The notes beneath the pieces were generated by a model. That model was not told the origin of the DNA, did no database searches, and saw nothing but the letters and a program-made list of their open reading frames with translations. From positions 4,704,001 through 4,768,000 of the forward strand of contig CBDCOX010000002.1 in NCBI GenBank assembly GCA_965219995.1: 64,000 bases of DNA, in the 5' to 3' direction. This document shows, one piece after another, positions 598 through 48,342 of the stretch. Position numbers and translations under genes: made by a program. Each line of letters starts with the position of its first letter. The stretch's first letter is position 1. This DNA comes from Candidatus Latescibacterota bacterium (GTDB lineage: Bacteria > Latescibacterota > UBA2968 > GCA-2709665).

Positions 598-697
598 GCC
601 GTAGAGCAAACTGTTGGTTTGCTCTAACCGATGATCGTGGGCCTTCGCATTGAATCCGCTATCCAATGTCTTGTAGGGGCGTCCCTTGTGGGCACCC
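598..697 (+). repeat. Composite REP-like element, copy 2
   Basis: Diverged direct copy of 182-281 (GTAGAGCAAACTGTTGGTTTGCTCTA ... GTAGGGGCGTCCCTTGTGGGCACCC). Confidence 0.85.
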
Positions 698-22817: not shown

Positions 22818-22893
22818 AGGCGGGAGGGTTCGGAGGTTGGAAGACCGGGATCGGAATTCCGGTGGATCAGTACCGGCCTCCGCAATGCAGCTT

Positions 22894-25800: not shown

Positions 25801-26460
25801 TTCCGCGTACCAGTTCGGCATCGCGGAGTGGTAGAGCGGGAGAAAGAAGCCGAAGTCCGGATTCTGGTTGGAGCGGCTGCTGCCGAGCAGGCCGAAGACA
25901 AAGGGCATGCTGTTGTGAGAAGATTTGAGCGTGATGTGGTGGGTGAGTTCGTGGGTGAACACGTCGAGCACCCAGTCGTGAGTGCCTCGAGAGTCCCAGT
26001 TGGCGGGTGTGGCCCCGAAGAATATCAGATTTCCCAGGTAGGCCGAGTAGGCGTTTCCCAGAATGTCGATGTCGGAAACGACCACGTGAACCGGGGCGTA
26101 GCGATCTATGGAACCCGGGTAGTGACGGGATATCTTCTCGAAGGTGTCGTCCGCAATTTCGGCGATGCGGCGGGCCGTGTTTTCCGCTTCCGCGTAGTAG
26201 ATGGCGAAATACTTCGTGCGGATTGCCCGTGCGCCCGGCACGTGGAGGCCGAGCAGGGCAGGAAAGAAATGACGCTCGTGCCGATCCCAGGTGTAATCGG
26301 GCATGGTGCGGTTCAACGGGACGTCGGCAATGTCTACCGTGGGACCGAATTTGTACTTCCTGGGAATCTGCTGGGCGTCTGACGGGATCGTCGCGCCGGA
26401 CGAAAACGTGATCAGAACTGCGGTGAAGAGGCCGATGGACAGGATCGTGGATCGGTTCAC
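22894..26460 (-). CDS. Outer-membrane protein: zincin (HELTH) domain + PD40/TolB-like propeller + BamA/Omp85-like barrel
   Basis: Signal peptide from GTG 26460; HELTH...AEGIA; PTYSPDG, PAVSPDG and PSVSPGG repeats; LGGIGTLRGYP and terminal IYFGLTI. Confidence 0.8.
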   Translation of the reverse strand: MNRSTILSIGLFTAVLITFSSGATIPSDAQQIPRKYKFGPTVDIADVPLNRTMPDYTWDRHERHFFPALLGLHVPGARAIRTKYFAIYYAEAENTARRIAEIADDTFEKISRHYPGSIDRYAPVHVVVSDIDILGNAYSAYLGNLIFFGATPANWDSRGTHDWVLDVFTHELTHHITLKSSHNSMPFVFGLLGSSRSNQNPDFGFFLPLYHSAMPNWYAEGIAQFESKKYGGDLWDTHRDMILRMATLEDDLLSYTNMGVFGKDGFKSEQVYNQGYAFLNYLAETYGQDSVRAMSRHRPIVNFKSAVKKSTGRSAPELYDEWTAHLDRKYGELADSIRASGEREGELLSDRGDVEHFPTYSPDGTKMAFISNEGSDYAIMEMLVMDLTTRKLTKVARSRKYGKYVNLPFSWMPDGNALVYSKSVGGNWDIFIYDLITRKERRVTVGLRGRDPAVSPDGTKIAFVGNRDGTSNLGIVNIDGTEVRYLTNNNNGTQYYTPRWSEDGNRLLFSIFRGEDRDIAVISADATPRPKKTDKKKTEKQELAERIAERKKAETGMDSVQAEADSLALAEAASRDSMVAFPDSLAYANNAGFEVIINTGADERDAVWLPGGGGIVYASDRTGIFNIYALDLTTGRQEQLSNVIGGAFSPSVSPGGDEILYSGYHAANYNIYRIRKSGAVAAAPADSLVRDYSSIYKGKKIGDLFNTGRYAPRLSSIGVVPILVLGPTFIGNRFGLDQLSVGAEAAWGDLLGSDNIYTGFTVGKNLKKGVDLNSNFSAFYTRGLPAVHTEDRTYAPRIFVGASQQTINSQIDRGIVDARRDTTSGTLQIVIDDTLRLVPGVTSFTNLSLTQEDKYKNLFNDFVVGIETSIGRRQVVSMTYGRRRYKESAHIHQVILDSTRLVQNRSGVITDITDQIPGLGEDEVVFDDFLYRDLSFFRSNDLTVGWRYFNFQPAKDMFVNPSRGRAITLRYRRINASVTDSLFRSQLNQDGVAAPTYMSDPTKLGINEYVVSWNEFIGLGGRSTLALQAFLAYKDKPIKDVQENTSSAEGVFYYPLRYYLGGIGTLRGYPYFSTSGGKALLARASLTFPIFKNAAKELPPYFFDKVYGTFFVETGATGNFESLRALLDSDDRFKRSAFLTDWGFELRMQMFTHYRIPLYGYFQIAFPTRDSIQGQDIDNNRIYFGLTI

Positions 26461-26594
26461 GTGCTTCTCCTGGACTTCAATGGATGGATTGGGGTGGATT
26501 GGACGGCCGACGGGACGTTGCGCGACGCGCCTCCGCGCCGGTCGGCTATAAAAGTATACAATTAGACCTCCCAAGACAACGAACGGTTCCAATT

Positions 26595-27584
26595 TCAGTC
26601 CGCCGGGAGGTGTTGCCCGGTCCGCAGAATACACGCGACGCTGTGGTTCCCGCCGATTTCGAGCAGTTCCGGAACGACTCTCGTACATGCGTCTTCCCGT
26701 TCCGGGCAGCGCGGATGAAAGGGACAGCCGTGAGGGACGTTGGCGGGGCTGGGGACGTCCCCGGTCAGCACTGTGCGCTGCTTCCTGATGCGCGGGTCCG
26801 GTACGGGGACGGCCGAAAGGAGGGCGCGGGTATATGGGTGCTGCGGAGCGTCGCACAGGGTGTGGCTCTCCGCGATTTCCACGATGCGCCCCAGGTACAT
26901 CACCGCGATACGGTTGGAGATATGTTTGACAACGCTCAGGTCGTGCGCAACAAAGAGGAAGGTGAGGCCGAACCGGACCTGAAGATCCTGTAGCAAATTG
27001 ATGATCTGGGCCTGGATCGACACATCCAGGGCCGAAACGGGTTCATCCGCGACGATGAATTCCGGATTCACGGCCAGAGCGCGGGAAATGCCGATTCGCT
27101 GACGCTGCCCGCCGCTGAATTCGTGCGGATACCGGCGGGCATGGTCCGGGCGGAGGCCCACCGTGTCCAGGAGTTCGGCCACCCGCTCCCGCGTATCGCT
27201 CCCATCGGTAAGTTTGTGGATTTTCAGCGCTTCGGCCAGCATCCCCCCGACGGTCATACGGGGATTCAGCGAGCTGTATGGGTCCTGGAATATGATCTGC
27301 ATCCGGCGCCGTACGCCGCGAAGCTCCGTCCGGTTCAAACCGAAGACGTCGGCGCCGTTAAACAGCACGCGCCCCTCCGTGGCCTCGATGAGCCGCAAAA
27401 TGGTCCTCCCCGCCGTCGTTTTGCCGCATCCGGATTCCCCCACCAGACCCAGGGTCTCCCCCCGTTGAACCGAAAAGGAGACGCCGTCGACGGCCTTGAC
27501 GTAGCCGACGGTCCGGGAAAAAACCCCGCGGGTTATCGGGAAGTGCTTCTTGAGGCCGTGGACTTCGAGCAGAGGCTTTGACAT
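26595..27584 (-). CDS. oppF: Peptide ABC transporter ATP-binding subunit (OppF/DppF-like)
   Basis: [21 protein letters not shown]-terminal GCPFHPRC. Confidence 0.93.
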
Positions 27585-27585
27585 G

Positions 27586-28584
27586 TCAATCCGATCGCGT
27601 CACGGGAGAGGGGTAATCTTCGACCATCCAGCAGGCCACGTGGCGGCTGCCGGCGGTCGGTTCCAGGCGCGGTTCGTCCGTTACACACACGTCTTCCGCC
27701 AGGGAACACCGGGGCGCAAACCGGCATCCGGAGGGAAAACGGGTCGCGTCGGGCACCGTGCCCGGAATCACGGACAGCCGGTTCTTCTCTTCGTTGAGCG
27801 TGGGTATGGATTCCAGCAAGCCCCTCGTGTAGGGGTGCTGAGGGCTCGCGAAGATCTCGTCAACCGTTCCGGTCTCCACGATCTTCCCGGCGTACATGAC
27901 CGCCACGCGGTCCGCGACTTCCGCGATGACTCCCAGGTCGTGGGTGATCATCAGGACGGCCATCCCCAATTCCCTCTGAAGCCGGTCCAGAAGCTCCAGA
28001 ATCTGTGCCTGAATGGTCACGTCCAGCGCCGTGGTGGGCTCGTCGGCGATCAGCAGTTCCGGATTGCAGGAAAGGGCCATGGCAATCATCACCCGCTGGC
28101 GCATGCCGCCGGAGAGCTGGTGAGGGTACTCGTTCGCCCGATGTTCCGGATCCGGAATGCCCACCAGGTTGAGCATGTCCACGGTTTTGGCCCGGGCGGC
28201 GTCTCTGGCGAGGCGCTGGTGGAGCATTACGGCTTCGTCAATCTGGTCTCCGCAGGTAAACACAGGGTTGAGGCTGGTCATCGGCTCCTGGAAGATCATC
28301 GCGATGTCGTTGCCCCTGACACCCTGGAAAGCGGCTTCATCCAGATTCAGCAGATTCCGTCCGTTGAATCGGATCTCGCCATCGACGATTTCACCCGGCG
28401 GTTCCGGTATCAGACGCATGACGGACAACGATGTTACGCTCTTTCCGCACCCGGATTCTCCCACCAGACCCAGTGTTTCACCCTTGTCCAGAGTAAAGGA
28501 GACGCCATCCACGGCTTTGGCGATGCCGCCATCCGTATGGAAGTACGTCTTCAGCTCTTGGACGGTCAGAAGGGGCTCCGACAT
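27586..28584 (-). CDS. oppD: Peptide ABC transporter ATP-binding subunit (OppD/DppD-like)
   Basis: [33 protein letters not shown]. Confidence 0.93.
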
Positions 28585-28693
28585 AAGGCCGAACCTATAT
28601 TGAACCTGCGCCTGTTGCGAATGCGCCGCGAACCGGGCGGGCGCGTGGGCTCGAAAACAACATCATGACTCGATAGGCAGTCGCTCCGCCGGG

Positions 28694-29437
28694 TCAGAAG
28701 AGCGGCGGGTTCAGATGCAGCCAGTCTTCGAGCAGGAAATCCACGCGGCCGATGAGCAGGGAAATACGCGCCATGACGGTATAACCGAACGAAGCGCCGA
28801 ACGAAACCATCAGGAAGTAGATGCCCACCCTGGAGATGCCGCCCACAACTCCTTTATGTTCGACGGAAAAGTAAAAGTAGATGAGGACGCTCACGACGCC
28901 GATCAGGATGATCGCAGGATTCAGTACGGCCCATCCGAAGTCCGCCGACGCCTGGGAAAACGGGCTTATTGTGGGTTCGATCTGTTCGATGATGAAGGAG
29001 GCCACGCGGCGGGGGATGGCCAGGCCCGCGCCGAGCCCCACGAAGAAAGCGAAGGAGATGCGGCTGAGCCACACCCCTCGGCCGAAAAAGCGGGTCATCA
29101 GAAAGAGACCGAGACATGCCGGAACGAGCACCAGCCATCTGACGCCCGTGTCGGCCGGTGGACGGAAGAGAGGATTCACCACGTCCACCAGGATGCTCTG
29201 GTACCAGACCAGCGCCAGTTCGTATGCGGCAACAACGCCCACGTAGAGGTGCTCGGCCAGCTTGAAGAGCGGATTGTCCCTGTAGAGGAAGCTGTACAGC
29301 GCGAGCGTGATCCCGGCGGCGAGGATAATTCCGAACCCCGACCAGTTCGCCTGAAGGTCGCCGGTGGCCAGCAGATACCCGTTTACGACCGCAAAGAGCA
29401 GAATGAAGACCGGGAAGACGATGTTTTCTCTATTCAT
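28694..29437 (-). CDS. Uncharacterised polytopic membrane protein (GlmL-associated cluster)
   Basis: About 7 hydrophobic segments; SFLYRDNPLFKLAEHLYVG and SFGASFGYTVMARISLLIGR; ATGA overlap with the upstream gene. Confidence 0.8.
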   Translation of the reverse strand: MNRENIVFPVFILLFAVVNGYLLATGDLQANWSGFGIILAAGITLALYSFLYRDNPLFKLAEHLYVGVVAAYELALVWYQSILVDVVNPLFRPPADTGVRWLVLVPACLGLFLMTRFFGRGVWLSRISFAFFVGLGAGLAIPRRVASFIIEQIEPTISPFSQASADFGWAVLNPAIILIGVVSVLIYFYFSVEHKGVVGGISRVGIYFLMVSFGASFGYTVMARISLLIGRVDFLLEDWLHLNPPLF

Positions 29438-30273
29438 GCCGCTGTTCCTTTACGAACGGCGCTTCGGTGCAGAAAGTAGACGACGTTTCCCAGCAGGATG
29501 AACCCGATGATGACCAGATGTGCGACGGATTGCGGACGCATGCCGCTGACCGCCAGCGCTCTCTTGCCCACCAGGGCTTCGTATTCCGCGGCGCCGGCGA
29601 GCCCGCCGATGAGGCCGTCGAGCTGCCGGGACTGAAGGAAGGGGAAGAAATCAGGCGCCATCACGGCGGTACATCCGGCCCCCAGGGGGAACCGGTATCG
29701 TTCCTGCCCGTACGCGATCCATTCGTCGACGCCGGGAAAGCCGGCAGCCAGATCGATCACGTAATCGAAGTCTTTCAGCGACTGCAGATTGCGGGTGAGA
29801 GACATTTCAGAGGTGGCGACGCCCCGGATGTCTTCGGGAAACGCGCCCTGCAGGTCCTGGCCCATATTCAGGATCAGGATCGGGCCGCCGGCCTTGAACC
29901 CGAGGAACGCATAGTCCGTTCCGTTCACGCGTCCGTATTCCTCCCCCGCCGTCTCAAACGCCTGCATGGCGAGCCCCACGGCTTCGGTGATGAGCGTCAC
30001 GCCCACCACCCGGATGTTCCGGCTGAAGCAGTGGCGAAGAATGGCCAGGGCCATGGGCTGGAGTTCCGGCTGCGAACTGGGTCCGTAGTCGAAGGAGATG
30101 AGCACGACGGCATCGGGATCTCCGGAAAGGCTTTCTATCGAATCGTAGACCGCGCGCACGTTGGGCGTGGCCTTGATGGGCAGTTCGAAGCCGATGAGCA
30201 GAGGGATGCATACGGCGAGAAAGACGGCCAGGTAGACGATGCGCCGGTCGATATTCAGAAGGCGTTCGATCAT
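29434..30273 (-). CDS. Uncharacterised membrane-anchored alpha/beta protein (GlmL-associated cluster)
   Basis: Start MIERLLNIDRR overlaps the upstream stop; N- and C-terminal TM helices; SFDYGPSS, GGLAGAAEYE. Confidence 0.8.
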   Translation of the reverse strand: MIERLLNIDRRIVYLAVFLAVCIPLLIGFELPIKATPNVRAVYDSIESLSGDPDAVVLISFDYGPSSQPELQPMALAILRHCFSRNIRVVGVTLITEAVGLAMQAFETAGEEYGRVNGTDYAFLGFKAGGPILILNMGQDLQGAFPEDIRGVATSEMSLTRNLQSLKDFDYVIDLAAGFPGVDEWIAYGQERYRFPLGAGCTAVMAPDFFPFLQSRQLDGLIGGLAGAAEYEALVGKRALAVSGMRPQSVAHLVIIGFILLGNVVYFLHRSAVRKGTAA

Positions 30274-30926
30274 TGTCCTTCCTCTCCGAGATAGGATCGT
30301 TCGATGCCGAAGATGATGCGCAGGGCCGTGGCGATCGCGCCGAGGCTCACGCCCAGCAGGATACCGCGCCGTGCGGCCAGGTTGGGAGTGGCCATCAGCC
30401 ACTGGGACACCTCGGGCAGGTGTTCCGAGATGAGCGCGCCGATGGGCACCCGGCCGAGCATGACCAGCAGGGCGGCAACAAGGAGCACAACGGCTTCGGC
30501 CGACCGGGCCCGGAAGGTGCGGTAGGCGGCTGAAGCGATAAAGAAGGCAAGCAGAGAGAACATGGTGGCGCCGCCGGCCACGTGGATGTGCGTATACATC
30601 CAGTTCAGATCCAGACCGTCTCCCGGCGCGAGCGGTTGAAGCGGCCCACTTCCGTTGTTGTAGACGGCCAGTGCGATCGTGACGATGAATCCGATGTACA
30701 CCACGGCGCTGAACGCCCATCCGGCCTGTTTGCGTCTGATCCGGTGCCAGTGCATCTGCAGCAGGCTGTGGATGCCCAGAAACAGGGCGAAGGCGGCGAT
30801 GATCCGGTACCAGGTTGAGGTTGTGATCTCAACCGGTTGGGCAACCGGGATATAGTAGGTGAAGATACCGATGACACCGGCTGCGAAAGCCACGAGCAAC
30901 GGCAGGGTGCGCTGCAGGAAATACAT
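30270..30926 (-). CDS. Uncharacterised polytopic membrane protein (GlmL-associated cluster)
   Basis: About 6 TM segments; ATMFSLLAFFIASAAYRTFRARS, PNLAARRGI, LRIIFGIER. Confidence 0.8.
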   Translation of the reverse strand: MYFLQRTLPLLVAFAAGVIGIFTYYIPVAQPVEITTSTWYRIIAAFALFLGIHSLLQMHWHRIRRKQAGWAFSAVVYIGFIVTIALAVYNNGSGPLQPLAPGDGLDLNWMYTHIHVAGGATMFSLLAFFIASAAYRTFRARSAEAVVLLVAALLVMLGRVPIGALISEHLPEVSQWLMATPNLAARRGILLGVSLGAIATALRIIFGIERSYLGEEGQ

Positions 30927-30972
30927 TCGGTTTTCTCCGGAATACGTGAACGTGGATGCCTTGCCCTCGTCG

Positions 30973-32163
30973 TCAGCTCAGCAACGGCCAGAGGCCGAAC
31001 CCGGCCAGTATCGAACCGAGCATCAGCATCAGAATGATGATTCCCTTCCCGAGGTCCTGTCCCTTCAGGCTTCCCAGAAGCTTTGGGTCTCTCGAGAGAT
31101 AGGCGCTGGCGGCGTAGAGTTCCTCCCCCATCAGCGTGTAGTCGCAGGTCGTGATGAAGAACGGAAGCTGCGTATAGGCATCGGTTGCGGCGATCTGAAT
31201 GGCGCCGGTTGTGGAGCCGGTTTCCGCCAGGAGCAGGGATTCGGCGTAGAAATAACCCATCAGGAGATTGGCAGCCGGCTTCTCCCGCACCATCAGGCCC
31301 TCCAGCGCGGCCGCATAGCTGAACTGGTCCGCGGCCGCCAGAAAGACATTGTCCGGGTTGAACGCGTCCGGCCGTCCGGCCTCGATGCAGGACTCCTTCA
31401 CCACCTCCTGGCTTACGGACATGACGATCGGGTCCCGGTTACCCACCTTGAGCTGGGTATCGTACTCCGCGGTTCGTTTCGCCACCTGCCCGAGTATATT
31501 CACGGCGGCGATGGTGGAGGGGCTGCCCATGTCCTGCAGACCGTGTACGAAAAGCACCGGCTTTCCCATTTCGGTTGCCCTGCCAAGGGCTTCGTCCAGT
31601 GCGTCCAGGCCGGCCAGCCGGCGGATATAGAGGTTCTTCCGCCGGGCGAGTCGGATGTAGACGAGGATCAGAATCGAGAAGAGCGCGGCCAACGCGAGAT
31701 TTCCGGTTTTTGTCGAATTGAAATAATTGCCGCGGGCCCGGGCCTCGACAACGGTGTAGCCCCCGCCGTGGACTCCGATGCGAATGAAATACGCCTTGCC
31801 GTTCTCGATCCTGGTCCGGTCCTGTCCTTCAGGATCCCGGTAGGACTCGATGAGGGCGAAGTGACGATTCCGGTTGTCATCGTCCGATCCGAACGTGGCG
31901 GGCTCGTCGGCCATCGTCGGCGTCGTCTTCGGGTCCAGTTCCGCAACGTGATAAAACGGGCCCTCCGCCCGTTCGGAGACATCGATGCGGTAGCGCGCGC
32001 TGTCCGGCAGGACCTCGCGACGCGGCCACGTGAGCGTGATGCTGCGCCCCTGGTCGTTGGGCGTGTCGAATGCCCGGACGCCGGCCGGCGCCGTTTCGGC
32101 TGCGCCTGCCGGTGCGGCGGCGATGACAAGAGCGAGAAGGAACATTAGATGCGCCATATGCAT
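30973..32163 (-). CDS. DUF6754-like protein with signal peptide and fibronectin-III-like N-terminus
   Basis: DTPNDQGRSITLTW; IRRLAGLDALDEALGRATEMGKP; GEELYAASAYLS; QDLGK. Confidence 0.75.
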   Translation of the reverse strand: MHMAHLMFLLALVIAAAPAGAAETAPAGVRAFDTPNDQGRSITLTWPRREVLPDSARYRIDVSERAEGPFYHVAELDPKTTPTMADEPATFGSDDDNRNRHFALIESYRDPEGQDRTRIENGKAYFIRIGVHGGGYTVVEARARGNYFNSTKTGNLALAALFSILILVYIRLARRKNLYIRRLAGLDALDEALGRATEMGKPVLFVHGLQDMGSPSTIAAVNILGQVAKRTAEYDTQLKVGNRDPIVMSVSQEVVKESCIEAGRPDAFNPDNVFLAAADQFSYAAALEGLMVREKPAANLLMGYFYAESLLLAETGSTTGAIQIAATDAYTQLPFFITTCDYTLMGEELYAASAYLSRDPKLLGSLKGQDLGKGIIILMLMLGSILAGFGLWPLLS

Positions 32164-33284
32164 TACGATTCGATCCTTTCGGCGTTTGCGCGGGGTATCA
32201 CGGCGCGTTGTCCGTCTTCGAGCTGAACTTCCAGCACGCGTACCCTGATTTCCGATTCCACGGCCGCCAGTTCGGAAGGCAGTGAAGTGACGACACCGGT
32301 TTTTCCGAAATACGGCGCGCGTATCGTACGGATCGGATCTCCAACGGAAAGGCCTTCCCGCGCCACGGATGCCTCGGCGACGGTTGAGCGGCCCGTGTCC
32401 GGGACGATGATCTCGGGACGAAGCACGCCCGCCCGGATCTGGGTTGCCCCGGATATCGAGGCTTCGTCTCCGTTTCTTTCATTCAGAATGTCGAATGTCT
32501 TTCGCGCCATGGCGATGTCGCCGAATCCTTCCGTGACCACCACCGTAAGGCCGATTTCCTCGGCGCCGGTAATGGCCACGCCGAGGTCGTAACCCAGCAG
32601 GCTCCGCAGGTCGTGGTCGCGGATGCCCCCGCCAATGAGACCTGCCGCGCCGATTTCCCGGGCTTTCCGGATCAGGTCCAGGGTGACCAGGCCGCCGGCG
32701 ATGAGGATCTTTCCGGTACACGAGGCGTCGATCCGGTCTTCCGGAAGCCGCTCGCCGGGGGTTGCGGCGAGCGTATGGATCGCACCCCAGCTCTCGCCGC
32801 CGATTCCGAAAATGCCCTGAAGAAAGGCGCCCACGGTTTCGACGACCACCCCTTCGCCCGGAATGGTTTCCACAACGACGCCGTCCACGTAGGCTTTCAC
32901 CTGTACGGGACGGGGCGGACCCCGCAGAATCACCTGGCCGGTGACCGGCGAAATGCTCTCCACGGTGCCGGTGACCGGAGACTCAACCGTGGTCTTGAAC
33001 CACCTGATGAACGGCCGGGTCTCGGCGAGAGGTTCCCCGGATTCGACCGGCTCACCCTCGTTCTTGAGCATGAAGGCGGGAAGTTCGTCGGGGGTGACGC
33101 CCAGCCTGTTGACCAGGTTCAGGGTGGTCACGTCTCCGGGCAGTTCGGTCCGGGCGACCACCCGGTCGCGCTGCACGGATTCTCCCTCTGAAACCAGCAC
33201 CTCACCGGTGAGCGGGAGCTGCCGTCTCTTTCGTATGGTTGCCCTGCGGGTGACCCGCAGTCCGGGTGTGTACGTATGCGCCAT
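32163..33284 (-). CDS. Uncharacterised soluble protein with barrel-sandwich-hybrid motifs and C-terminal KOW-like motif
   Basis: VLVSEGESV and MLKNEGEPVESGEPLA...SPVTGTV; QGIFGIGGE; TEGFG; VGDPIRTIRAPYFGKTGVV. Confidence 0.8.
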   Translation of the reverse strand: MAHTYTPGLRVTRRATIRKRRQLPLTGEVLVSEGESVQRDRVVARTELPGDVTTLNLVNRLGVTPDELPAFMLKNEGEPVESGEPLAETRPFIRWFKTTVESPVTGTVESISPVTGQVILRGPPRPVQVKAYVDGVVVETIPGEGVVVETVGAFLQGIFGIGGESWGAIHTLAATPGERLPEDRIDASCTGKILIAGGLVTLDLIRKAREIGAAGLIGGGIRDHDLRSLLGYDLGVAITGAEEIGLTVVVTEGFGDIAMARKTFDILNERNGDEASISGATQIRAGVLRPEIIVPDTGRSTVAEASVAREGLSVGDPIRTIRAPYFGKTGVVTSLPSELAAVESEIRVRVLEVQLEDGQRAVIPRANAERIES

Positions 33285-33287
33285 GGG

Positions 33288-34358
33288 TCAGACTTTCATC
33301 TTCGGATCCAGGGCGTCTCGCAGGCCGTCGCCGAGCAGATTGTACAGGGTGACGGTGATAAAGATCGCGAACCCGGGTACGATCACCAGCCACCACGCCG
33401 AAATATTGTTCCGGGCGCCGGCGAGAATCGCGCCCCAGGTGATGGCCTCGGCAGGTACCCCGATGCCCAGAAAGCTGAGGCCGGATTCGGCCAGGATGGC
33501 GCCCGCAACGCCGAACGCCGCCGGAATCAGTACGGGCGCAATCGCGTTTGGCAGAATATGGATGAACATGATCCGGCCGCTGGAATATCCCAGGCTCTTG
33601 GCCGCGGAAACAAAGTCGTAGCTCCTTACCTGCAGAAACTGCGACCGGGTGAGCCTCGCGATCCCCACCCAACCCGTAAAGCCGAGAATAATCATCACGA
33701 AGAAGAGGCTGGGGGGGAAAAACGCGGCGACCGTGATGATCAGAAAGAGGGCGGGGATGGCGGCCCAGAGCTCGAACACACGGGAGAGAATCAGATCGGT
33801 CCAACCCCCGAAGTAGCCGGCCAGCGCGCCGAGGGCAACGCCGATGATCATTGAGATCGCCACGGAGACCAGTCCGATGGTGAGCGCGTATCGGGTTCCG
33901 TGGATCAGCCCCGAGAGTACGTCCCGGCCCAGCCGATCCGTACCCAGGAAATGCGCCGCGCCCGGCGGCATGTATTTGTCTGCGAGACGGACGTCGCTGG
34001 GACCGTAGGGAACGGGCGGGAATATTGCCGATTCGGATCTCAGGCGTTTGAAGTTCTTCCTTCTTCTGAGCGGCGCCGGCCAGTCGGCCAGCCCGAGATA
34101 GACGGCGTACTGGCGAAAGGCGGGGAAATAGGTCTTGCCCCTGTACTTCATATAGTACGGTTTGTTTCCCGCCAGGAAGTCCGCGAAAACCGCCGTGAAC
34201 GCGAGAACGCCGATCGCCGCCAGGCTGAAAAGGGCCGGACGGTTCTTCCTGAACTGACGCCAGACCAGCTTCGAATAGGTCTGGCTCTCCTGTTCAGCCC
34301 CGGATTCAGTCGATGCGGCGTCGGCTTCGGCGATTTCGCCGGATGCAGCGGTTTCCAT
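33288..34358 (-). CDS. oppC: Peptide ABC transporter permease (OppC/DppC-like)
   Basis: VWRQFRKNR, HFLGTDRLGRD, HILPN, AESGLSFLG, GDGLRDALDPK. Confidence 0.93.
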   Translation of the reverse strand: METAASGEIAEADAASTESGAEQESQTYSKLVWRQFRKNRPALFSLAAIGVLAFTAVFADFLAGNKPYYMKYRGKTYFPAFRQYAVYLGLADWPAPLRRRKNFKRLRSESAIFPPVPYGPSDVRLADKYMPPGAAHFLGTDRLGRDVLSGLIHGTRYALTIGLVSVAISMIIGVALGALAGYFGGWTDLILSRVFELWAAIPALFLIITVAAFFPPSLFFVMIILGFTGWVGIARLTRSQFLQVRSYDFVSAAKSLGYSSGRIMFIHILPNAIAPVLIPAAFGVAGAILAESGLSFLGIGVPAEAITWGAILAGARNNISAWWLVIVPGFAIFITVTLYNLLGDGLRDALDPKMKV

Positions 34359-34362
34359 GGGT

Positions 34363-35664
34363 CTATCCCTGAAGGCGGGAAAATTCGATGCGCGGATCCA
34401 CAACTTTCAGGAGGATGTCCGCAAGCAGAATGCCAAGCAACGAAAGGAACGAACCGATGGTCAGAATGGCCATGACCATCGGATAGTCGCGTACGAGTAC
34501 GGATTGCACGCCCAGATATCCGAGGCCCGGAATGGTGAAAATGGTCTCGATAAAGACCGAGCCGGCGATGATGGCCGGAAGCAGATTCGCGAGGATCGTC
34601 ACGATGGGGATCAGTGAGTTGCGGAAGACGTGCCTCAGAACCACGACCTTTTCAGGCAGCCCCTTCGCCCTGGCGGTGCGTACGTAGTCCAGCCTGAGGT
34701 TTTCCAGCATGCTGGTGCGCATGAATCGGGAAAGGCCGGCGAAGCTGGCGTAGCTGGAGGCCAGTACCGGCATGGCCAGGTGGTGGGCGTGGTCCGTCAG
34801 CAGGCGCCAGAAGCCCCAGTCGGATGAGGCGTCCAGAGACTGGATGCCCGAGGCGGGAAACCAGTACAGAAAATCCTTGTTGCAGAAAAAGACAATCAGA
34901 AGCATGCCAACCCAGAATGAAGGCATGGACCACAGGATGAAGGTTCCGGTTGTGAGCGTGCGGTCGGTCCGGGTGTCCTGTTTCACGGCCAGCCAGATAC
35001 CGAGCGGAAGACCGATGACATACGCGATGATCAGGCTGATGACGTTGATTTCGATGGTGATGGGCACGCGCGCGAGGATATGGGAGATGACCGGCTGCTG
35101 GTCTTTGAAGGAACGTCCGAAATTGAGTGTGACAAAGCGCCGGTCGAAGAGATGGAAGAGCAGCAGGCCGGCGCCGGTATACTCGTAGTTGTTCTCGAGT
35201 TTGACGGTCTTGCTCTCCCAGAAAGAGGAAAGGACGAGCGCCTTTGCCTCGTCCGGGTGACGTTCCTCGAAACTGCGAAGGAACCGGGCTTTACGCGCCT
35301 CGTATTCCAGTGAGGCCAACTCGCTTCTTTCCGAGGTGTCCAGTTTCGAGAGATAGACGTCGACGCGGCGGCCCATGCGTTCGAAGTTGCTGAGCGGCTC
35401 CACGTGAAGAACCAGGCTCGACAGCCAGTTCAGGTACTGAACGTGCAGCGGCATGTCGAGGCCGAGTTGTCGGCGAAGGTCCTCGCGCGTTTTTTCGAAA
35501 TCGGACTGCCGATCCGTAGAAATGCCCTCCTCCCCCGCCATGCCGCCGAGAAAGAAGTCGACCGGGTCGCCGGGAGCGAGATGCATCACCAGGAAGGAGA
35601 TCAGGGTGATGCCGATCATGGTCGGGATCATCAGCAGGCTGCGCTGCAGGATGTACTGGATCAT
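34363..35664 (-). CDS. oppB: Peptide ABC transporter permease (OppB/DppB-like) with inserted periplasmic segment
   Basis: HLAPGDP, DYVRTARAKGL, RHVFRNSL, RDYP, DPRI. Confidence 0.93.
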   Translation of the reverse strand: MIQYILQRSLLMIPTMIGITLISFLVMHLAPGDPVDFFLGGMAGEEGISTDRQSDFEKTREDLRRQLGLDMPLHVQYLNWLSSLVLHVEPLSNFERMGRRVDVYLSKLDTSERSELASLEYEARKARFLRSFEERHPDEAKALVLSSFWESKTVKLENNYEYTGAGLLLFHLFDRRFVTLNFGRSFKDQQPVISHILARVPITIEINVISLIIAYVIGLPLGIWLAVKQDTRTDRTLTTGTFILWSMPSFWVGMLLIVFFCNKDFLYWFPASGIQSLDASSDWGFWRLLTDHAHHLAMPVLASSYASFAGLSRFMRTSMLENLRLDYVRTARAKGLPEKVVVLRHVFRNSLIPIVTILANLLPAIIAGSVFIETIFTIPGLGYLGVQSVLVRDYPMVMAILTIGSFLSLLGILLADILLKVVDPRIEFSRLQG

Positions 35665-35742
35665 CTGCCTTCAGGCCTCTCCGTGCCGACGTCTGTTCAT
35701 TCGCGATTGCAACAGGATCCGGTCGTCTCCCCTGCCCCAACC

Positions 35743-37584
35743 TTATTGGTACAACCGGTTCGAGGCGCCTACCCACCATTCCTGGGTATTCGCGCCAATG
35801 GCATACCAGTTGTCACCCGCAAAACGCCTGCTGTACGAAAAGGCGTTGCGGGACTTCCACAGAAACGTATACGGTTGCTCGTCGTGCAGGATTTCCTGGA
35901 ATCGCCGGTAAAGCTGAATTCGCTTGTCCATATCGAACTCCCTGCGGTAGGATTCCAGGATGCGGTCGACCTCCTCGTTCTTGAAGCCGATGTAGTTCGA
36001 CCCCTGCCCCTCGGACTGCGAGGAGTGCCAGATCTGATAGGAATCCGGCGGCGTACGCAGGCTTCCGGTCCACCCCAGCGTACACGCGGCAAAATCCTTT
36101 TTTCGAACGACCCGGTCCAGGAAGATGGTCCAGTCCAGTTCCCGTACCTCGCAGGCGATTCCGATGTCCTGCAGTTCGTATTGCAGCGCGAGGGCGATGT
36201 CTTTGCGGAGCTGGTTCCCCGAATTGACGAGAAATTCAAATTTGAAGGGGCGTTTCCTGCCGTCGATGACCTTGTCCAGGATGCCGTCGTTGTCGCTGTC
36301 GGCCCAGCCGGCCTCCTCCAGAAGGTCAAGCGCTCTGTCGGGATCGTAGGCATGGGGCTCCAGGCTGTGGTTGTATTCGGGCCGGAATTTGTGGATGGGG
36401 CTCTCAACGGCTTCCGCCAGACCGAACATGAGGTTCACCACCATGCTCTCACGGTCGGTGAGATACGTCATCGCTCTGCGCACGCGCTTGTCGCGAAAGA
36501 TGGGGTGCGCGTTGTTCCAGCCGATGTACACGTACCCCGAAGAATAGATTACGCTTTTCTTGAATCGCCTGATAAAATCCGGAGACCAGCTCTTGTCCTT
36601 GAACTGAAGGGGCCTGAGCCCGAAAAAGTCGATATTGCCGTTCGTGAGCTCGATAAACGCGGCCTCCTGATCATTCACGATCTTGAAGACGATCTTTTCC
36701 ACGTAGCCCTTGGGCATCAGATCGGTCCGGTCCCCTCCCCAGTAGTTGGGATTGCGTGTCAGTATCACCTTTTGCCCGGTGACCACGTCTTCGTCCCAGT
36801 CTGCCACGAGGTACGGCCCGGAACCGAGCATCTTCCGGTGGAATCCGGTGTTGAATTTCTCGGCGAACTGCTGTACTCGCTCCGCGTGGGGGCCGCTTTC
36901 CCAGGAACCGTCGATGAGACTTCCGATGTCGACGGGATCCATCAGGCCGTCGGGGTCGTAGAAGTGCTTGGCAAGAATCTCCATGCTGCCCAGGGAGATA
37001 TTGTTTCTGAAATAGGGTTCCCGGCAGACGAAACTGATTCTGTATTTGCCCTCCTGTTCAACGTCGCTGATAGCCGCGAAATAGTTTCGAAGCGAAGCCG
37101 CCAGAACTTTCGGGTTCTTGATGACCTTGATGCTGAAGAGGACGTCGTCCGCCGAGAGCGGCTTGCCGTCTGCGAAGTGGACGTCCTCGCGAAGGTCGAA
37201 CGTGTAGATGAGCTTGTCTTCCGATACCGCCGGGGGCCCTTTCGCGACCAATCCTCTGAGATTGTAAGGCGATTCGTCCTCGATGTCCAGCAGCGACTCG
37301 AAGATGTACTGGTGTACCGTGGAAGCGCCTGAGTCGTTGGAGACGTAAGGGTTGAAATTCTCCGGGTCTGAAAGAAAGTGGCGAACCATCCAGTCGCCGA
37401 ATTGAGGCTTGTCGTCGCCGGAATACATCGCAGCCACTCTCTCCGTGCCGTCCAGTACGATCGCCGGGTCCTTCCTTGTATCCATCAGCGTTTTCTGAAC
37501 CCGCTGCCAGGGCGTTTCGCCGTTGCAGGGGGCCGCAAAGAAAAAACACATGCCGAAGATTGCCAATCCGCGCCAGGGTCCCAT
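35743..37584 (-). CDS. oppA: Peptide ABC transporter substrate-binding protein (family 5)
   Basis: YTFDLREDVHFADGKPLSADDVLFS, GSGPY, RNPNYWG, FRDKRVRRAM. Confidence 0.92.
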   Translation of the reverse strand: MGPWRGLAIFGMCFFFAAPCNGETPWQRVQKTLMDTRKDPAIVLDGTERVAAMYSGDDKPQFGDWMVRHFLSDPENFNPYVSNDSGASTVHQYIFESLLDIEDESPYNLRGLVAKGPPAVSEDKLIYTFDLREDVHFADGKPLSADDVLFSIKVIKNPKVLAASLRNYFAAISDVEQEGKYRISFVCREPYFRNNISLGSMEILAKHFYDPDGLMDPVDIGSLIDGSWESGPHAERVQQFAEKFNTGFHRKMLGSGPYLVADWDEDVVTGQKVILTRNPNYWGGDRTDLMPKGYVEKIVFKIVNDQEAAFIELTNGNIDFFGLRPLQFKDKSWSPDFIRRFKKSVIYSSGYVYIGWNNAHPIFRDKRVRRAMTYLTDRESMVVNLMFGLAEAVESPIHKFRPEYNHSLEPHAYDPDRALDLLEEAGWADSDNDGILDKVIDGRKRPFKFEFLVNSGNQLRKDIALALQYELQDIGIACEVRELDWTIFLDRVVRKKDFAACTLGWTGSLRTPPDSYQIWHSSQSEGQGSNYIGFKNEEVDRILESYRREFDMDKRIQLYRRFQEILHDEQPYTFLWKSRNAFSYSRRFAGDNWYAIGANTQEWWVGASNRLYQ

Positions 37585-37607
37585 CGTTTGCCTCCTTGTG
37601 ACGCCCG

Positions 37608-39389
37608 TTAATGAGGGTAAAGGTCCAACGCCCGGTTCCAGGCGGCAACCCGCTCGACCGGATCCGCGTCCGGAAATGGAAGCGGTCGGCCGCGGCCGTC
37701 CAGTATCAGGCCGGCCACGCCGCCCTTGACCGTCCGGCGAATCGTCTGACCGGGTCCGGCGCCGGCGTCCCAGCCCGACTCGGGATGCAGGCTGACGTCT
37801 GCCTCCTGACCGGGGCCCACGTCCAACATGTGGATGGCGCCGACGTTCAGGTCGCCGGATCCGGCGCCGCCGGCCCGGGCGATTTCATACGTGGCGCAGA
37901 CTTCACCGGGTTTGCCGTCGCCGGACGGCGCAACGCACGTTCCCAGATCCACCAGGCAGTCCCGTTCGAATACCTCGGCGGCGGCCTGCTCGTTGACGCT
38001 TGTGAGCACACCCAGGTGAGGCATCATGAAGATGCTGTCGACCGCCAGCCGGGTAAATCCCTGAGGCTGGAACGCGTCGATCAGCATGGCCGCGGACTGC
38101 GCCCGCCGGGGCGCGTGAGAGAGAACGCCGCCGCTGCCCACCAGGAGGTCCAGGTCCGGCATGTGAATCAGGCTTTCGCCCGCGCCGGACTGGTCGAACG
38201 CGTCGGAAAGGGTGCGTTCCGTCTGCACGCCCTTGAGGCCCACGGCCAGGGCGCGGTGCTGGTCGAACGCGAGGCGCAACGCCTCACGTGCGATGGCCTG
38301 CTCGAGTTGCAGTTCCTCCAGGGTCTGGGGGACGGTCGTTGGGCGGATCATCTTGTTCTTGACGCGGTCCCTGAGGTCGGCCTCGTCGATTTCAAACGGC
38401 ACCCAGCGCATCACGTTCGCCAGACCGGCCTCGGCCAGCACGTTGGAGATGCTGTACGACATTCCCAGGTTGGCGCTTACGGTCCGGTTGAACGTCCCGT
38501 CAAATACACTGAAGACGTCCGTGGTCGCCCCGCCGATGTCCACGCCGACGACGTTGATGTTCCGACGGCGGGCGACCGTCTCGATCAACAGGCCGACCGC
38601 TCCGGGTGTGGGCATGATGGGCGCGCCCGTCCATTCCATCAGCTTCCTGTACCCGGGCGCCTGCGCCATCACGTGTTCAAGGAAGAGGTCGTGGATTACC
38701 TGTCGCGCCGGCCCGAGGTTTTCGCGTTCCAGCAGGGGGCGGATGTTGTCCGTGGTTTTCAGCGCGGTTTTGTCGCCCAGGACCTCGCGGACGTTTTCTC
38801 TCGCGTCCTTGTTTCCGGCAAAGATCACGGGAAGCCGGAAACCGGCGCCGAACCGCGGCCTGGGGTCTGCCGCTGCGATGAACTCGGCGAGTTCCACAAC
38901 GTGGCTTACGGTGCCGCCGTCCGTTCCCCCCGACAGAAGCACCATGTCCGGTCGCAAATGGCGGATGCGTTCGATCTTCTGGTGGGGCAGGCGGCCGTCG
39001 TTGGACGCGAGGACGTCCATCACGATGGCGCCCGCGCCAAGGGCCGCACGCTGGGCGCTTTCCCCCGTCATCGCCTGGACAACCCCGCCCACCATCATCT
39101 GGAGGCCGCCTCCGGCGCTGCTCGTGGACACATAGATGTCGACGCCGCGGCGGCCATTTGCGGGCGTGACGATGCGTTCGCCTTCCAGGATGACGCGACC
39201 GGAGAGTTCTTCAACCTCCTGTATGGCGTTGAGGACGCCCCTGGTGACGTCTTCGAACGGAGCTTCGACCGTTGTAGGCGCCTCGCCGCGGCAGGTCTGC
39301 CGGTAGCACTCTCCCTCTTTTTCTATAAGGATGGCCTTGGTGGTCGTGCTGCCGCAGTCCGTGGCGATGATGACGTCCGGCTTATCCAT
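37608..39389 (-). CDS. GlmL/MutL(glutamate-mutase-associated)-like ASKHA ATPase
   Basis: DCGSTTTK and DIGGATTD phosphate loops, SSAGGGL, GGTDGG, GSGGVL; no mutase subunits in the window. Confidence 0.85.
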   Translation of the reverse strand: MDKPDVIIATDCGSTTTKAILIEKEGECYRQTCRGEAPTTVEAPFEDVTRGVLNAIQEVEELSGRVILEGERIVTPANGRRGVDIYVSTSSAGGGLQMMVGGVVQAMTGESAQRAALGAGAIVMDVLASNDGRLPHQKIERIRHLRPDMVLLSGGTDGGTVSHVVELAEFIAAADPRPRFGAGFRLPVIFAGNKDARENVREVLGDKTALKTTDNIRPLLERENLGPARQVIHDLFLEHVMAQAPGYRKLMEWTGAPIMPTPGAVGLLIETVARRRNINVVGVDIGGATTDVFSVFDGTFNRTVSANLGMSYSISNVLAEAGLANVMRWVPFEIDEADLRDRVKNKMIRPTTVPQTLEELQLEQAIAREALRLAFDQHRALAVGLKGVQTERTLSDAFDQSGAGESLIHMPDLDLLVGSGGVLSHAPRRAQSAAMLIDAFQPQGFTRLAVDSIFMMPHLGVLTSVNEQAAAEVFERDCLVDLGTCVAPSGDGKPGEVCATYEIARAGGAGSGDLNVGAIHMLDVGPGQEADVSLHPESGWDAGAGPGQTIRRTVKGGVAGLILDGRGRPLPFPDADPVERVAAWNRALDLYPH

Positions 39390-39729
39390 TCAGTCGGTTG
39401 TCCGCCTCCACCAGAGAGTCGATCAGCGTCTGCACACTCCGGCGCTTCTCCAGAAAACGCACGAATCGATTGTATTCCACGCCTGAGAAGATAAGGTTGA
39501 CAAAGGGCGAAAGAAAAGTCAAAAACTGACTGCCTATAAAGTTGAACGGCTTGCCGGCTTCGAGTACCATCAGGGCGGGTGTGGTCATTTGCCGGCGAAC
39601 CACGAACGCCGCCATTTTCGCCGCCAGCGCACGTTCTTCCGCCGTGATGCGGTCATCCGGCGGGTCGACGGCGAAAGCGTGATCGAACCAGGTTCTAAGG
39701 CGCTGCATCCGCGAGGCGGGCTTCGACAT
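39382..39729 (-). CDS. Hypothetical protein
   Basis: Overlaps both neighbours in the same direction; LEAGKPFNFIGSQ..FLSP..FLEKR. Confidence 0.7.
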   Translation of the reverse strand: MSKPASRMQRLRTWFDHAFAVDPPDDRITAEERALAAKMAAFVVRRQMTTPALMVLEAGKPFNFIGSQFLTFLSPFVNLIFSGVEYNRFVRFLEKRRSVQTLIDSLVEADNRLNG

Positions 39730-40135
39730 AGGCGATGACCTCGTCGCGATTGTCGCGATACCGCAGGAAACAGCCCCGAAACGGATCGAGCCGGTGCGGG
39801 CGGACGAAAGGGCTTAGGAAGACGCCGTCCGGCAGGACCGCATGCCGGCGGATACGACCCCAGGGAGTTGTCCGCCGCGCGCCCAGGTGGGCGATCAGGA
39901 CGTGCTCCTGGAGGAGTGCGTATCGCGTGGGAGCAAAGTAGCGGGACATCGAGGCCGTAAGCAGTACGGCCGCCAGGAAACCGAACGCGGGCGTTTCGAA
40001 GGCGAGGGCCACGAGCACCGGCACCCCGAGTATGATCAGGACGAGCAGGGCCGTCTTTACGGGCGGCTCATGCCGGAGGGGATGGACGGTCCAGCGGAGT
40101 TCGGTGGCGGTTGAAGGGGTTCCCGTTCTGTCCAT
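39695..40135 (-). CDS. Hypothetical membrane protein (2 TM + PH-like soluble part)
   Basis: Two TM helices, YFAPTRY, GVFLSPF..RLDPFRG. Confidence 0.7.
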   Translation of the reverse strand: MDRTGTPSTATELRWTVHPLRHEPPVKTALLVLIILGVPVLVALAFETPAFGFLAAVLLTASMSRYFAPTRYALLQEHVLIAHLGARRTTPWGRIRRHAVLPDGVFLSPFVRPHRLDPFRGCFLRYRDNRDEVIAYVEARLADAAP

Positions 40136-40220
40136 GCGCGCAGGAAATCGAGGATATTGAGGACGGTGGGCCGGCCTGCTTGAGGCACGCCGGCGGGGGA
40201 TCCTCTGCCGAAACAGTTTC

Positions 40221-41096
40221 TCAGATAATTCGCCGGACGATCCGGGGTTCCCGTGTCCCGTCGCCCAGGTTCCAGGCGTCCGTTCCGTACTTTGTTTCGA
40301 CGAGGTGCTCCGCGTCGACCTTTTCCTCCGCGGTCAGGCAGGATTCAGTCAGTGCGATGCCCAGGGTCATCTCGAAGCCTTCGCGCAGGGCGCATGCGAC
40401 CGCGTTGAATCCTGCGGGTCGACCGGCTTCCGCCAGTGAGATGGTGTGTCGGTCCAATTCCCGCCGGAAGCGTTCTTTCAGGGGTTGACCGCGGTCCGGC
40501 ATCAGATCGATGAGTCGCTTGTGTTCCGGGCCCAGCAGCAGCGAACCGTGCTGAAGGAGCACGTCGCCGAGGCGCCGCTGGGCGCTGCCGATGATCTTCC
40601 TGCCGTCGAGCGTCACCTCGTACTGCGTGGTACTTGAGAAGCAGGGGGACGTCAGTCCTTCGCCCCGCGGCGACGTGGCGGGAGATCGGCGGGGCTCGAA
40701 CTCGGCCGCGACGCCGAGGAGTCTCAGCCCCGCAACCAGGCAGGCGCTGATCTTCCGGTACGACTCCTGAATGGACCCGCCCAACAGCGGGTCGTCGGCC
40801 CGGCACAGTACGCTGTAGGTGAGTTCGTTCCAGTGGAGTACGGCGCGTCCGCCGCTCGGTCGGCGTACGAGGTGGATTCCGCGATTTCGGCATCGATCCG
40901 CATCGACTTCGCGGCCGACCCTCTGGGCATAGCCGAATGATACGGCGGGCGGCTTCCAACCGAACGTCCGGACCGTGGGCGGCGAGCCGTCGCCCGCGAC
41001 GCCGCGAACAATGGCCTCATCCGCGGCCATATTGAAAAAGGCGTTTCCCGATCCGGTGTTCAGGAAACGCCATGGACGCGATCTGGTGTCAAGCAT
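40221..41096 (-). CDS. lipM: Lipoate-protein ligase / octanoyltransferase (LipM/LplA family)
   Basis: NMAADEA, VRRPSGGRAVLH, PCF, KIIGSAQ, LQHGS. Confidence 0.85.
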   Translation of the reverse strand: MLDTRSRPWRFLNTGSGNAFFNMAADEAIVRGVAGDGSPPTVRTFGWKPPAVSFGYAQRVGREVDADRCRNRGIHLVRRPSGGRAVLHWNELTYSVLCRADDPLLGGSIQESYRKISACLVAGLRLLGVAAEFEPRRSPATSPRGEGLTSPCFSSTTQYEVTLDGRKIIGSAQRRLGDVLLQHGSLLLGPEHKRLIDLMPDRGQPLKERFRRELDRHTISLAEAGRPAGFNAVACALREGFEMTLGIALTESCLTAEEKVDAEHLVETKYGTDAWNLGDGTREPRIVRRII

Positions 41097-41099
41097 GTC

Positions 41100-48227: not shown

Positions 48228-48342
48228 AGACGGGAGACGTGAGATATTGTGTGCCCCGTGTGGTTTCACATCTTGCCAGAGGCATTAAGGTAGAATCAAT
48301 CGGGCAAGGACGTCTTCTACCGTCTACCGTCTTACGTCTCAC
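48228..48342 (-). mobile_element. 115-bp MITE-like element, copy 1
   Basis: Reverse complement of 60079-60193 with one mismatch; ends are AGACG/CGTCT heptamer arrays. Confidence 0.8.

Follow-up and report, generated by a model that had tools for sequence, protein, structure and literature searches.

The stretch of DNA analyzed here, 64,000 nucleotides (nt) from Candidatus Latescibacterota bacterium (assembly GCA_965219995.1, contig CBDCOX010000002.1, positions 4,704,001 to 4,768,000 of the forward strand) and referred to below as the window, carries an uncharacterised, widely conserved system made of two modules. The conserved unit consists of seven genes, or eight when the gene up146 is counted. 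The soluble module comprises up115, a GlmL-like ATPase and a protein here called hyb, and the membrane module comprises a DUF6754 protein, TM6, anch and TM7. We are highly confident that these proteins form one conserved multi-protein system. The most likely explanation of its function, which we hold with about even confidence, is an ATP-driven transmembrane machine that is linked to peptide acquisition in the window's lineage.

The evidence that carries the first of these statements is the recurrence of the set in other genomes. An alignment of DUF6754 was used to scan representative genomes (GTDB), where at least 600 stretches matched the pattern and at least 446 encode a relative. The best 80 of these at least 446 loci were retrieved together with flanks of up to 10 kb, their open reading frames (ORFs) were translated and searched by phmmer with the window proteins, and gene starts were chosen by alignment to the window proteins. 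As labelled, the 80 loci come from Latescibacterota (34), Gemmatimonadota (10), Planctomycetota/Brocadiales (32, including the anammox genera Scalindua, Brocadia and Kuenenia) and Thermodesulfobacteriota (1), with three unclassified. Chloroflexota, Zixibacteria, Marinimicrobia and other carriers are represented by protein matches without genomic context, and DUF6754 as a whole comprises more than 8000 clusters at 90% identity. Alongside DUF6754, the main members of the set were distributed as follows:

TM6: 80 of 80 loci; 0 absent with room on the contig; 0 at a contig edge
anch: 79 of 80 loci; 0 absent with room; 1 at a contig edge
TM7: 77 of 80 loci; 0 absent with room; 3 at a contig edge
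hyb: 66 of 80 loci; 10 absent with room; 4 at a contig edge
glmL: 62 of 80 loci; 12 absent with room; 6 at a contig edge

The membrane quartet is thus complete in all loci where the contig permits, and two of the loci scored as lacking glmL with room to spare (L003 and L062) are contig-end cases once an insert of three transporter genes, oppABC, is allowed for. The gene order is always up115-glmL-hyb-DUF6754-TM6-anch-TM7, on one strand. With 80 further loci from other genomes carrying the set, the locus is more than a chance arrangement. A sequence-only reading that preceded this analysis had named a recurring set of six genes; the neighbourhood survey confirms the recurrence and corrects the size to seven or eight.

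In the window, the set shares 13 head-to-tail ORFs on the minus strand (26595-40135, window ORF list) with the genes of an oligopeptide importer. Lengths are in amino acids (aa):

39695-40135, minus strand: up146, 146 aa; no Pfam or NCBIfam match
39382-39729, minus strand: up115, 115 aa; directly upstream of glmL with an 8-nt overlap; no family
37608-39389, minus strand: GlmL-like ATPase, 593 aa; Pfam MutL (PF13941), 427.9 bits
35743-37584, minus strand: oppA, 613 aa; family-5 solute-binding protein (SBP_bac_5), 258.1 bits
34363-35664, minus strand: oppB permease, 433 aa; BPD_transp_1 and BPD_transp_1_N
33288-34358 or 33288-34403, minus strand: oppC permease, 356 or 371 aa; BPD_transp_1 and OppC_N
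32163-33284, minus strand: hyb, 373 aa; soluble; no Pfam family
30973-32163, minus strand: DUF6754 protein, 396 aa; PF20539, 378.1 bits
30270-30926, minus strand: TM6, 218 aa; six hydrophobic segments; no family
29434-30273, minus strand: anch, 279 aa; transmembrane (TM) anchors at the N- and C-terminus; no family
28694-29437, minus strand: TM7, 247 aa; polytopic membrane protein; no family
27586-28584, minus strand: oppD ATPase, 332 aa; ABC_tran and oligo_HPY
26595-27584, minus strand: oppF ATPase, 329 aa; ABC_tran and oligo_HPY

The eleven genes that were noted first all lie head-to-tail on the minus strand within 26595-39389, and the ORFs, coordinates, strand and order given for them in the sequence-only reading agree with the window ORFs and the Pfam matches. 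The tight spacing with overlapping stop and start codons described there holds as well, with gaps from -4 to +109 nt and three such overlaps within this range. The start of the set was placed too far downstream, in that two conserved upstream genes, up115 and up146 (the latter in Latescibacterota only), were missed. From up146 to oppF, the successive intergenic gaps are -35, -8, 23, 78, 4, 3, -1, 46, -4, -4, 109 and 1 nt, and oppC probably starts at the ATG at 34358 rather than at the TTG at 34403. A promoter and terminator consensus scan of 22500-42000 gave counts no higher than in shuffled sequence, and the ends of the operon can therefore not be drawn from it. Five of the seven set proteins (hyb, TM6, anch, TM7 and up115) match no family in the versions of Pfam and NCBIfam searched, and a sixth is known by a DUF name only.

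Judged from its profile matches, the ATPase falls within the MutL family of Pfam and is not a standard GlmL. Residues 7-478 match profile positions 1-450 of the 450 in PF13941, above the gathering score, and a clade-specific C-terminal extension of about 115 aa follows the MutL domain. The top NCBIfam models are those for GlmL and for a GlmL-related ornithine degradation protein; the scores are 232.1 bits against a cut-off of 475 for the GlmL equivalog (NF040745), 210.3 against 600 for the ornithine degradation model (Or-4) and 168.9 against 204.05 for the subfamily TIGR01319 (glmL_fam), each below its cut-off. Weak matches to BcrAD_BadFG and Hydantoinase belong to the actin/Hsp70 fold superfamily. 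Across 32 sequences, the invariant columns include D11, G13, S14, T15, T17, K18, G286, G287, A288, T289, T290, G420 and G421, which we take to be the phosphate-1, phosphate-2 and adenosine motifs of the ASKHA fold. As these motif columns are invariant, the protein likely has an active nucleotide site. Identity between the window's protein and those of Brocadiales-type (anammox) loci is 65-69%.

GlmL/MutL proteins sit in glutamate mutase operons and are proposed reactivases of the mutase. No glmS, glmE or other B12 mutase gene, which would identify GlmL by context, lies alongside in the window; beyond the window and the fetched loci, the genomes were left unsearched. B12-mutase and B12-binding families are absent among the 46 window proteins scanned (14 cluster proteins and 32 other large ORFs), as the sequence-only reading had said of the mutase subunits. 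Among the 80 loci, where the other ORFs were clustered and not Pfam-scanned, no neighbour family outside the set occurs in more than 20 loci. Judged from the window and these loci, the set is very probably not a B12-mutase reactivase system, and it is probable that this GlmL clade belongs to the conserved set and not to a B12 mutase. The idea that the ATPase is an ordinary reactivase for a mutase encoded elsewhere, next to these genes by accident, can draw on the full-length MutL match, on the top NCBIfam models, on the known place of GlmL in glutamate mutase operons and on the name 'glutamate mutase L' that sources give to fused forms, but we consider it exceedingly unlikely in view of the low scores, the lack of mutase families in the window, the adjacency or fusion of the ATPase to hyb across phyla, and its high identity between phyla in which its neighbours are retained too.

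The partner of the ATPase is hyb, which retains 47-54% identity between the window and Brocadiales-type loci. Its AlphaFold2 model is good, with a predicted local distance difference test score (pLDDT) of 87.3 and a predicted template modelling score (pTM) of 0.70, and shows three domains: a beta-rich barrel-sandwich hybrid at the N-terminus, an alpha/beta domain in the middle and a small KOW barrel at the C-terminus. In Foldseek searches against the PDB, the C-terminus aligns to the KOW domains of NusG/Spt5 (e.g., 8p4e_Z, target TM-score 0.84); for the middle part, the matches are RraA-type proteins (target TM-score about 0.46, E about 4e-3). The earlier label 'hybrid/KOW' therefore fits both the model and the KOW matches. 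Among 63 relatives of hyb longer than 653 aa, a GlmL domain precedes the hyb domain in 62, giving one protein of about 1000 aa in 62 protein clusters. Of these fusions, 49 contain the whole of hyb (three being N-terminally truncated entries), and 13 more distant ones are without the KOW end. Some come from Neomarinimicrobiota, Planctomycetota, Aegiribacteria and Fermentibacteria and are annotated as 'glutamate mutase L'. The fusions also agree with the earlier description of the ATPase as an orphan GlmL-like protein, and they show that the ATPase and hyb presumably act as one unit. A single join of hyb to DUF6754 (P0271) contains a translated spacer and the DUF6754 signal peptide and ends early; it may be a read-through or gene-calling artefact, and is for these reasons not counted as evidence.

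Membrane topology was assessed from alignment-averaged hydropathy, which gives six peaks for TM6, about six to seven for TM7, and an anchor at both the N- and C-terminus for anch and for the DUF6754 protein, about 17 TM helices in total. The DUF6754 protein matches PF20539 at 378.1 bits (cut-off 27) over residues 145-389. By hydropathy and, for the Fn3-like domain, Foldseek, a signal peptide is followed by a periplasmic Fn3-like domain, a first TM helix and a cytoplasmic domain of about 200 aa, with a second TM helix at the C-terminus. Its alignment (A1) has 133 invariant columns, with long invariant runs in the cytoplasmic domain. Longer relatives, up to 1475 aa, keep this cytoplasmic part at 54-66% identity, preceded by Fn3 repeats or PQQ-type beta-propellers. 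The AlphaFold2 model is poor (pLDDT 63.2, pTM 0.39) and the Fn3-like N-terminal part is the sole Foldseek match, which is why no fold is assigned to the cytoplasmic domain.

Charge distribution and hydropathy predict that the conserved alpha/beta domain of anch lies outside the membrane, in the periplasm, with a helix at each end. A search of 1.84 billion representative proteins with a TM7 profile yielded 2552 relatives (E ≤ 0.001), and two of the best 150 (P0260 and P0267, 598 aa each) are fusions of anch to TM7. These fusions show the two as a unit that would act together. Other TM7 relatives have EF-hand inserts (P0222 and P0243) or a TIG insert (P0188) at about profile position 164, which corresponds to a loop that is short in the window's TM7. 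Neither TM6 nor TM7 matched anything in Pfam, NCBIfam or the PDB, TM6 had no usable match among the named Protein Atlas clusters, and lenient Pfam scans of TM6, anch and TM7 (41, 37 and 38 sequences) gave only the scattered matches typical of hydrophobic sequences. A paralogy of anch and DUF6754, suspected from their C-terminal motifs, was rejected, as hhalign of all 21 family-alignment pairs gave probabilities of at most 6.4%; no paralogy was detected between any two of the components.

The two small upstream proteins differ in their distribution. up115 has a HAF motif, one hydrophobic stretch, a C-terminal helix and 12 invariant columns (alignment A6); it has no Pfam or PDB relative, and a lenient Pfam scan gave scattered matches of the hydrophobic type. 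It is present in 59 of the 80 loci, including anammox loci (12 absent with room, nine at a contig edge). up146 has two hydropathy peaks, i.e., hydrophobic helices, and a conserved soluble part at the C-terminus. It is found in 42 of the 80 loci, all Latescibacterota-type (28 absent with room, ten at a contig edge), and is an accessory gene of the set in these loci.

The importer in the window is complete and of the Opp/Dpp type, with one SBP_bac_5 protein, two BPD_transp_1 permeases and two ABC_tran + oligo_HPY ATPases. The top NCBIfam models of these proteins are of Opp/Dpp/Nik type, and since all equivalog cut-offs were missed, no substrate is assigned. Opp genes (E ≤ 1e-5) occur in 43 of the 80 loci, in at least five arrangements:

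All five Opp genes: 10 loci
oppD and oppF only: 15 loci
oppA only: 13 loci
Other partial Opp sets: 5 loci
No Opp gene in the flanks of up to 10 kb: 37 loci

Where only oppD and oppF are present, they mostly follow TM7 on the same strand, with the opposite strand used in L039 and L053. In four anammox-type loci (L057, L060, L065 and L072), oppDF follow TM7 and no oppB or oppC is found in the fetched DNA. In the 13 oppA-only loci, the oppA homologue lies upstream of up146. At 200 bits or more, 33 of the 42 loci with up146 have Opp genes, as against 8 of the 38 without it. The placement of oppABC between glmL and hyb is seen only in the window's relatives; without oppABC, glmL adjoins hyb, and in other phyla the two are fused.

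The Opp arrangements were compared with a FastTree phylogeny of the concatenated membrane quartet, with 66 rows (the window and 65 loci); the remaining 15 loci, in which a quartet protein was missing or less than 70% covered, were omitted. In this tree, loci that have oppABC placed between glmL and hyb fall into two separate clades (starred). Presence or absence of Opp changes at least six times, and all arrangements together require ten changes versus 33.8 in shuffles, which show label clustering only. This is most simply read as an older operon that received Opp genes both within it and around it; these genes were then repeatedly reshuffled, staying near it in Latescibacterota. This reverses the earlier statement that the unknown genes split the Opp permeases from their ATPases: as Opp is a variable, lineage-specific neighbour, the unknown genes do not split an Opp operon. 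Since the Opp genes are repeatedly reshuffled and yet stay near the set, there is evidence for a functional link in the Latescibacterota lineage, but not for membership of the core.

The same tree bears on the taxonomic labels. The Gemmatimonadota- or Gemmatimonadaceae-labelled metagenome-assembled genomes (L003, L009, L016, L020, L024, L032, L034, L036, L039 and L073) interleave with Latescibacterota, e.g., L003 beside L001 and L024 beside L022, which suggests mislabelled bins or one shared lineage. One of them, L034, has an extra OppF-like ORF (3532-4524, plus strand, 290 bits) between glmL and oppA, in addition to oppDF after TM7.

The working that we propose would start from the ATPase. 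GlmL, EutA and DdrA are regarded as ATP-dependent remodelling chaperones, and by this view the GlmL-like protein may be a nucleotide-switched motor that cycles between ATP and ADP states. Its adaptor to the membrane module would be hyb, which has at its N-terminus the kind of barrel by which peripheral subunits attach to Rnf/Nqr complexes, and the cytoplasmic domain of DUF6754 would be the obvious docking surface. A complex prediction of hyb with DUF6754 residues 176-372 returned 'no answer' (score 0.00) and weighs neither way. ATP turnover would, through contact of hyb with the membrane module, cause a conformational change at the cytoplasmic face of that module, and the change would be relayed across the membrane so that a substrate is moved or the periplasmic domains do work. 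In the window's lineage, the inserted Opp importer (oppABC between glmL and hyb, oppDF after TM7) suggests that the machine may serve the acquisition or handling of peptide-like substrates. We infer ATP use, contact between the modules, transport and peptide specificity from gene content, conservation, synteny, fusions and domain folds, which are observed. That the set performs ATP-driven transmembrane work is a proposition to which we give an even chance, and that it is peptide-related in the window's lineage is a possibility we rate somewhat lower. The earlier proposal of an ATP-driven membrane complex coupled to peptide uptake is supported in part.

Several observations weigh against this proposal. 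The pLDDT of the DUF6754 cytoplasmic domain, the putative docking surface, is below 50 over residues 277-370. No transporter family matched TM6 or TM7, and PDB profile searches gave nothing significant for any of the seven set proteins, i.e., no solved relative. In ten loci, all of Brocadia/Kuenenia type (L052, L058, L059, L063, L065, L067, L068, L074, L078 and L080), the quartet occurs without glmL, hyb or up115 within 10 kb upstream. As these anammox-type loci hold the quartet alone, the soluble and membrane modules are separable in the genome. Many of the 80 loci are closely related, and the locus counts therefore overstate the number of independent observations. Finally, Opp transporters are common genes in these genomes, and 37 of the 80 loci have no Opp gene nearby, which makes the peptide link at most lineage-specific.

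An alternative is that the five unknown proteins are extra Opp subunits. The region would then encode a single, larger ABC importer, with OppDF as the energy source for TM6, TM7, anch and DUF6754, which would work beside OppBC or in their place. The interleaving of the set with Opp genes in the window would be expected from this, as would the 15 loci in which oppD and oppF are the sole Opp genes, mostly after TM7 on the same strand, the four anammox-type loci with downstream oppDF and neither oppB nor oppC, and the 13 loci with a lone oppA homologue upstream of the set. However, 37 loci are without Opp in the fetched flanks and most anammox loci keep the set intact without it. Also, TM6 and TM7 do not consistently match any ABC permease family, BPD_transp_1 included, and the constant partner of the membrane proteins is a separate GlmL-like ATPase, fused to hyb. 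We therefore regard this alternative as improbable.

The set might also be an envelope or surface machine, involved for example in adhesion, gliding, secretion or cell shape, in which an actin-fold ATPase moves variable ectodomains and Opp is a bystander. The high conservation of the cytoplasmic parts next to ectodomains that vary (Fn3, beta-propellers, EF-hand, TIG) agrees with such a role, and the ATPase does belong to the actin/Hsp70 fold superfamily. We nevertheless find this unlikely, as the neighbours include no family known from motility, secretion or division, and a recurrent association with Opp in several arrangements is hard to explain if Opp is unrelated.

A third alternative, which we judge very unlikely, describes the set as a highly divergent relative of Rnf/Nqr that moves ions and is coupled to ATP instead of redox reactions, with hyb as the NqrA/RnfC-like subunit next to six-TM subunits and an anchored periplasmic subunit. 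The subunit topologies resemble those of NqrA, NqrD/E and NqrC. Over 378 columns, the whole chain of hyb aligns in Foldseek with NqrA of Na+-NQR (8acy_A), although this match is weak (E 0.014, probability 0.16, TM-score 0.12). RnfC_N or NqrA_N matches were found on four of the six GlmL-hyb fusion proteins scanned; in two hyb relatives RnfC_N scores 27.2 and 25.7 bits, barely over the cut-off of 25.6, and the NQRA_N matches in three relatives are all below cut-off. In the Protein Atlas, Biotin_lipoyl or RnfC_N is found on 12-21% of the members of clusters neighbouring hyb (from Chloroflexota, Zixibacteria, Planctomycetota and Fidelibacterota), with RnfC_N on 19% of the members of one of them. 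By contrast, the window's own hyb has no Pfam match, RnfC_N and NqrA_N included, and neither Rnf-Nqr nor FMN_bind was matched in the lenient Pfam scans of the 41 TM6, 37 anch and 38 TM7 sequences. Invariant cysteines are lacking in TM6 and TM7, DUF6754 has one (C340), and C201 of anch is nearly invariant. As the lists of invariant columns are nearly free of cysteine, no cluster-like cysteine motif is seen.

Returning to the ATP-driven membrane machine, a bolder version would make it a new class of primary-active machine, in which an ASKHA motor of the GlmL family and an RnfC/NqrA-like adaptor drive a core of about 17 TM helices from four families without known relatives, with lineage-specific ectodomains, in many mostly uncultured phyla including anammox bacteria. 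Such a machine would be distinct from ABC, P-type, AAA+ and rotary systems. We put this version forward as tentative and rather doubtful. If it is true, the GlmL family would be one of nucleotide-switched remodelling motors, with B12-mutase reactivation as only one use. An ATP-driven membrane machine would in itself represent a new way of energising membrane work, and many 'glutamate mutase L' annotations in metagenomes would then not indicate glutamate fermentation. The carriers include the environmentally important anammox bacteria as well as Latescibacterota and Neomarinimicrobiota, and the conservation between phyla is unusual. The natural fusions would allow the ATPase and hyb to be expressed and assayed together as one soluble polypeptide. 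A full-text literature search, with most subscription journals outside its reach, returned no publication on DUF6754, PF20539, PF13941 or TIGR01319, and broader searches turned up nothing relevant to the set; PMC5167688, in its passages on glutamate mutase and MutL, deals with an ordinary glutamate mutase and the DNA-repair MutL. Within the literature so covered, the system is of a kind not yet described.

Some neighbouring genes deserve mention. Directly downstream of oppF (22894-26856, minus strand) is an ORF of up to 1320 aa, with a likelier start near 26688 or 26460, i.e., a protein of about 1200 aa. It has an HExxH motif (HELTHH near 25953) and PD40 beta-propeller repeats, and a homologue follows oppF in 20 of the 80 loci. 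It may be a secreted or envelope metalloprotease, and the gene would fit a neighbourhood for protein-to-peptide acquisition. None of the set's components matched a PADLOC model of anti-phage defence (eight proteins scanned).

On the other side of the set, the same strand carries, upstream, fabH, fabD, fabF, RNase III (41100-41930, minus strand) and an LplA/B-type catalytic-domain protein (40221-41096, minus strand). The LplA/B gene thus lies between RNase III and up146, downstream of the fab genes, and its product scores 96.9 bits against the NCBIfam lipoate ligase cut-off of 480. Counting full-coverage matches, an lplA homologue is found ahead of the set in 18 loci and an rnc homologue in nine. 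This LplA-like gene raised the idea of a lipoylated or biotinylated lysine in hyb, which was set aside. K97 is nearly, but not fully, invariant, the model places it after a short helix and not at a hairpin tip, and lplA adjoins the set only in Latescibacterota-type loci.

Farther away, the window encodes a leucine-rich-repeat protein of 2071 aa (686-6901, plus strand), a 1757-aa protein in which a DEAD/Helicase_C helicase is combined with one of UvrD type (7988-13261, plus strand), a PIN-domain ORF (13197-13679, minus strand) and an 806-aa penicillin-amidase family protein (48339-50759, minus strand, 723.6 bits). Genes of lipid and cofactor type, i.e., fatty acyl reductase-like, FAD oxidase, dethiobiotin synthase-like AAA_26 and class-III aminotransferase genes, are found at its far end.

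Among known systems, the Opp/Dpp-type importer (OppABCDF) is the one whose five parts are all encoded in the window. Unlike in an ordinary Opp/Dpp locus, these genes surround and interrupt a different conserved operon, and unlike Opp/Dpp components, the unknown membrane proteins of the set match no ABC component family. As for Rnf and Na+-NQR, the N-terminal barrel-sandwich hybrid domain of hyb may resemble that of their peripheral subunit RnfC/NqrA. The general plan of a peripheral cytoplasmic subunit, small polytopic subunits and an anchored periplasmic subunit is presumably similar too. However, no flavin, Fe-S or NADH-binding family was detected in the set, which has an ATPase where the redox modules stand in Rnf/Na+-NQR. 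In Hsp70-driven translocases (TIM23-PAM, Sec61/63-BiP), an actin/Hsp70-fold ATPase is placed at a membrane channel by an adaptor; this may serve as a working analogy, with no sequence relation shown. Another close comparison is with GlmL/MutL of glutamate and methylaspartate mutase operons and with reactivases of the EutA/DdrA type, with which the set's ATPase shares PF13941 and an ASKHA-type core. By analogy with GlmL, EutA and DdrA, it is likely a nucleotide-switched remodeller of a partner protein. Unlike GlmL proper, it scores below the NCBIfam cut-offs, has the C-terminal extension of about 115 aa and has no mutase genes nearby, and it is instead constantly partnered by hyb, often in one polypeptide, and by four membrane proteins.

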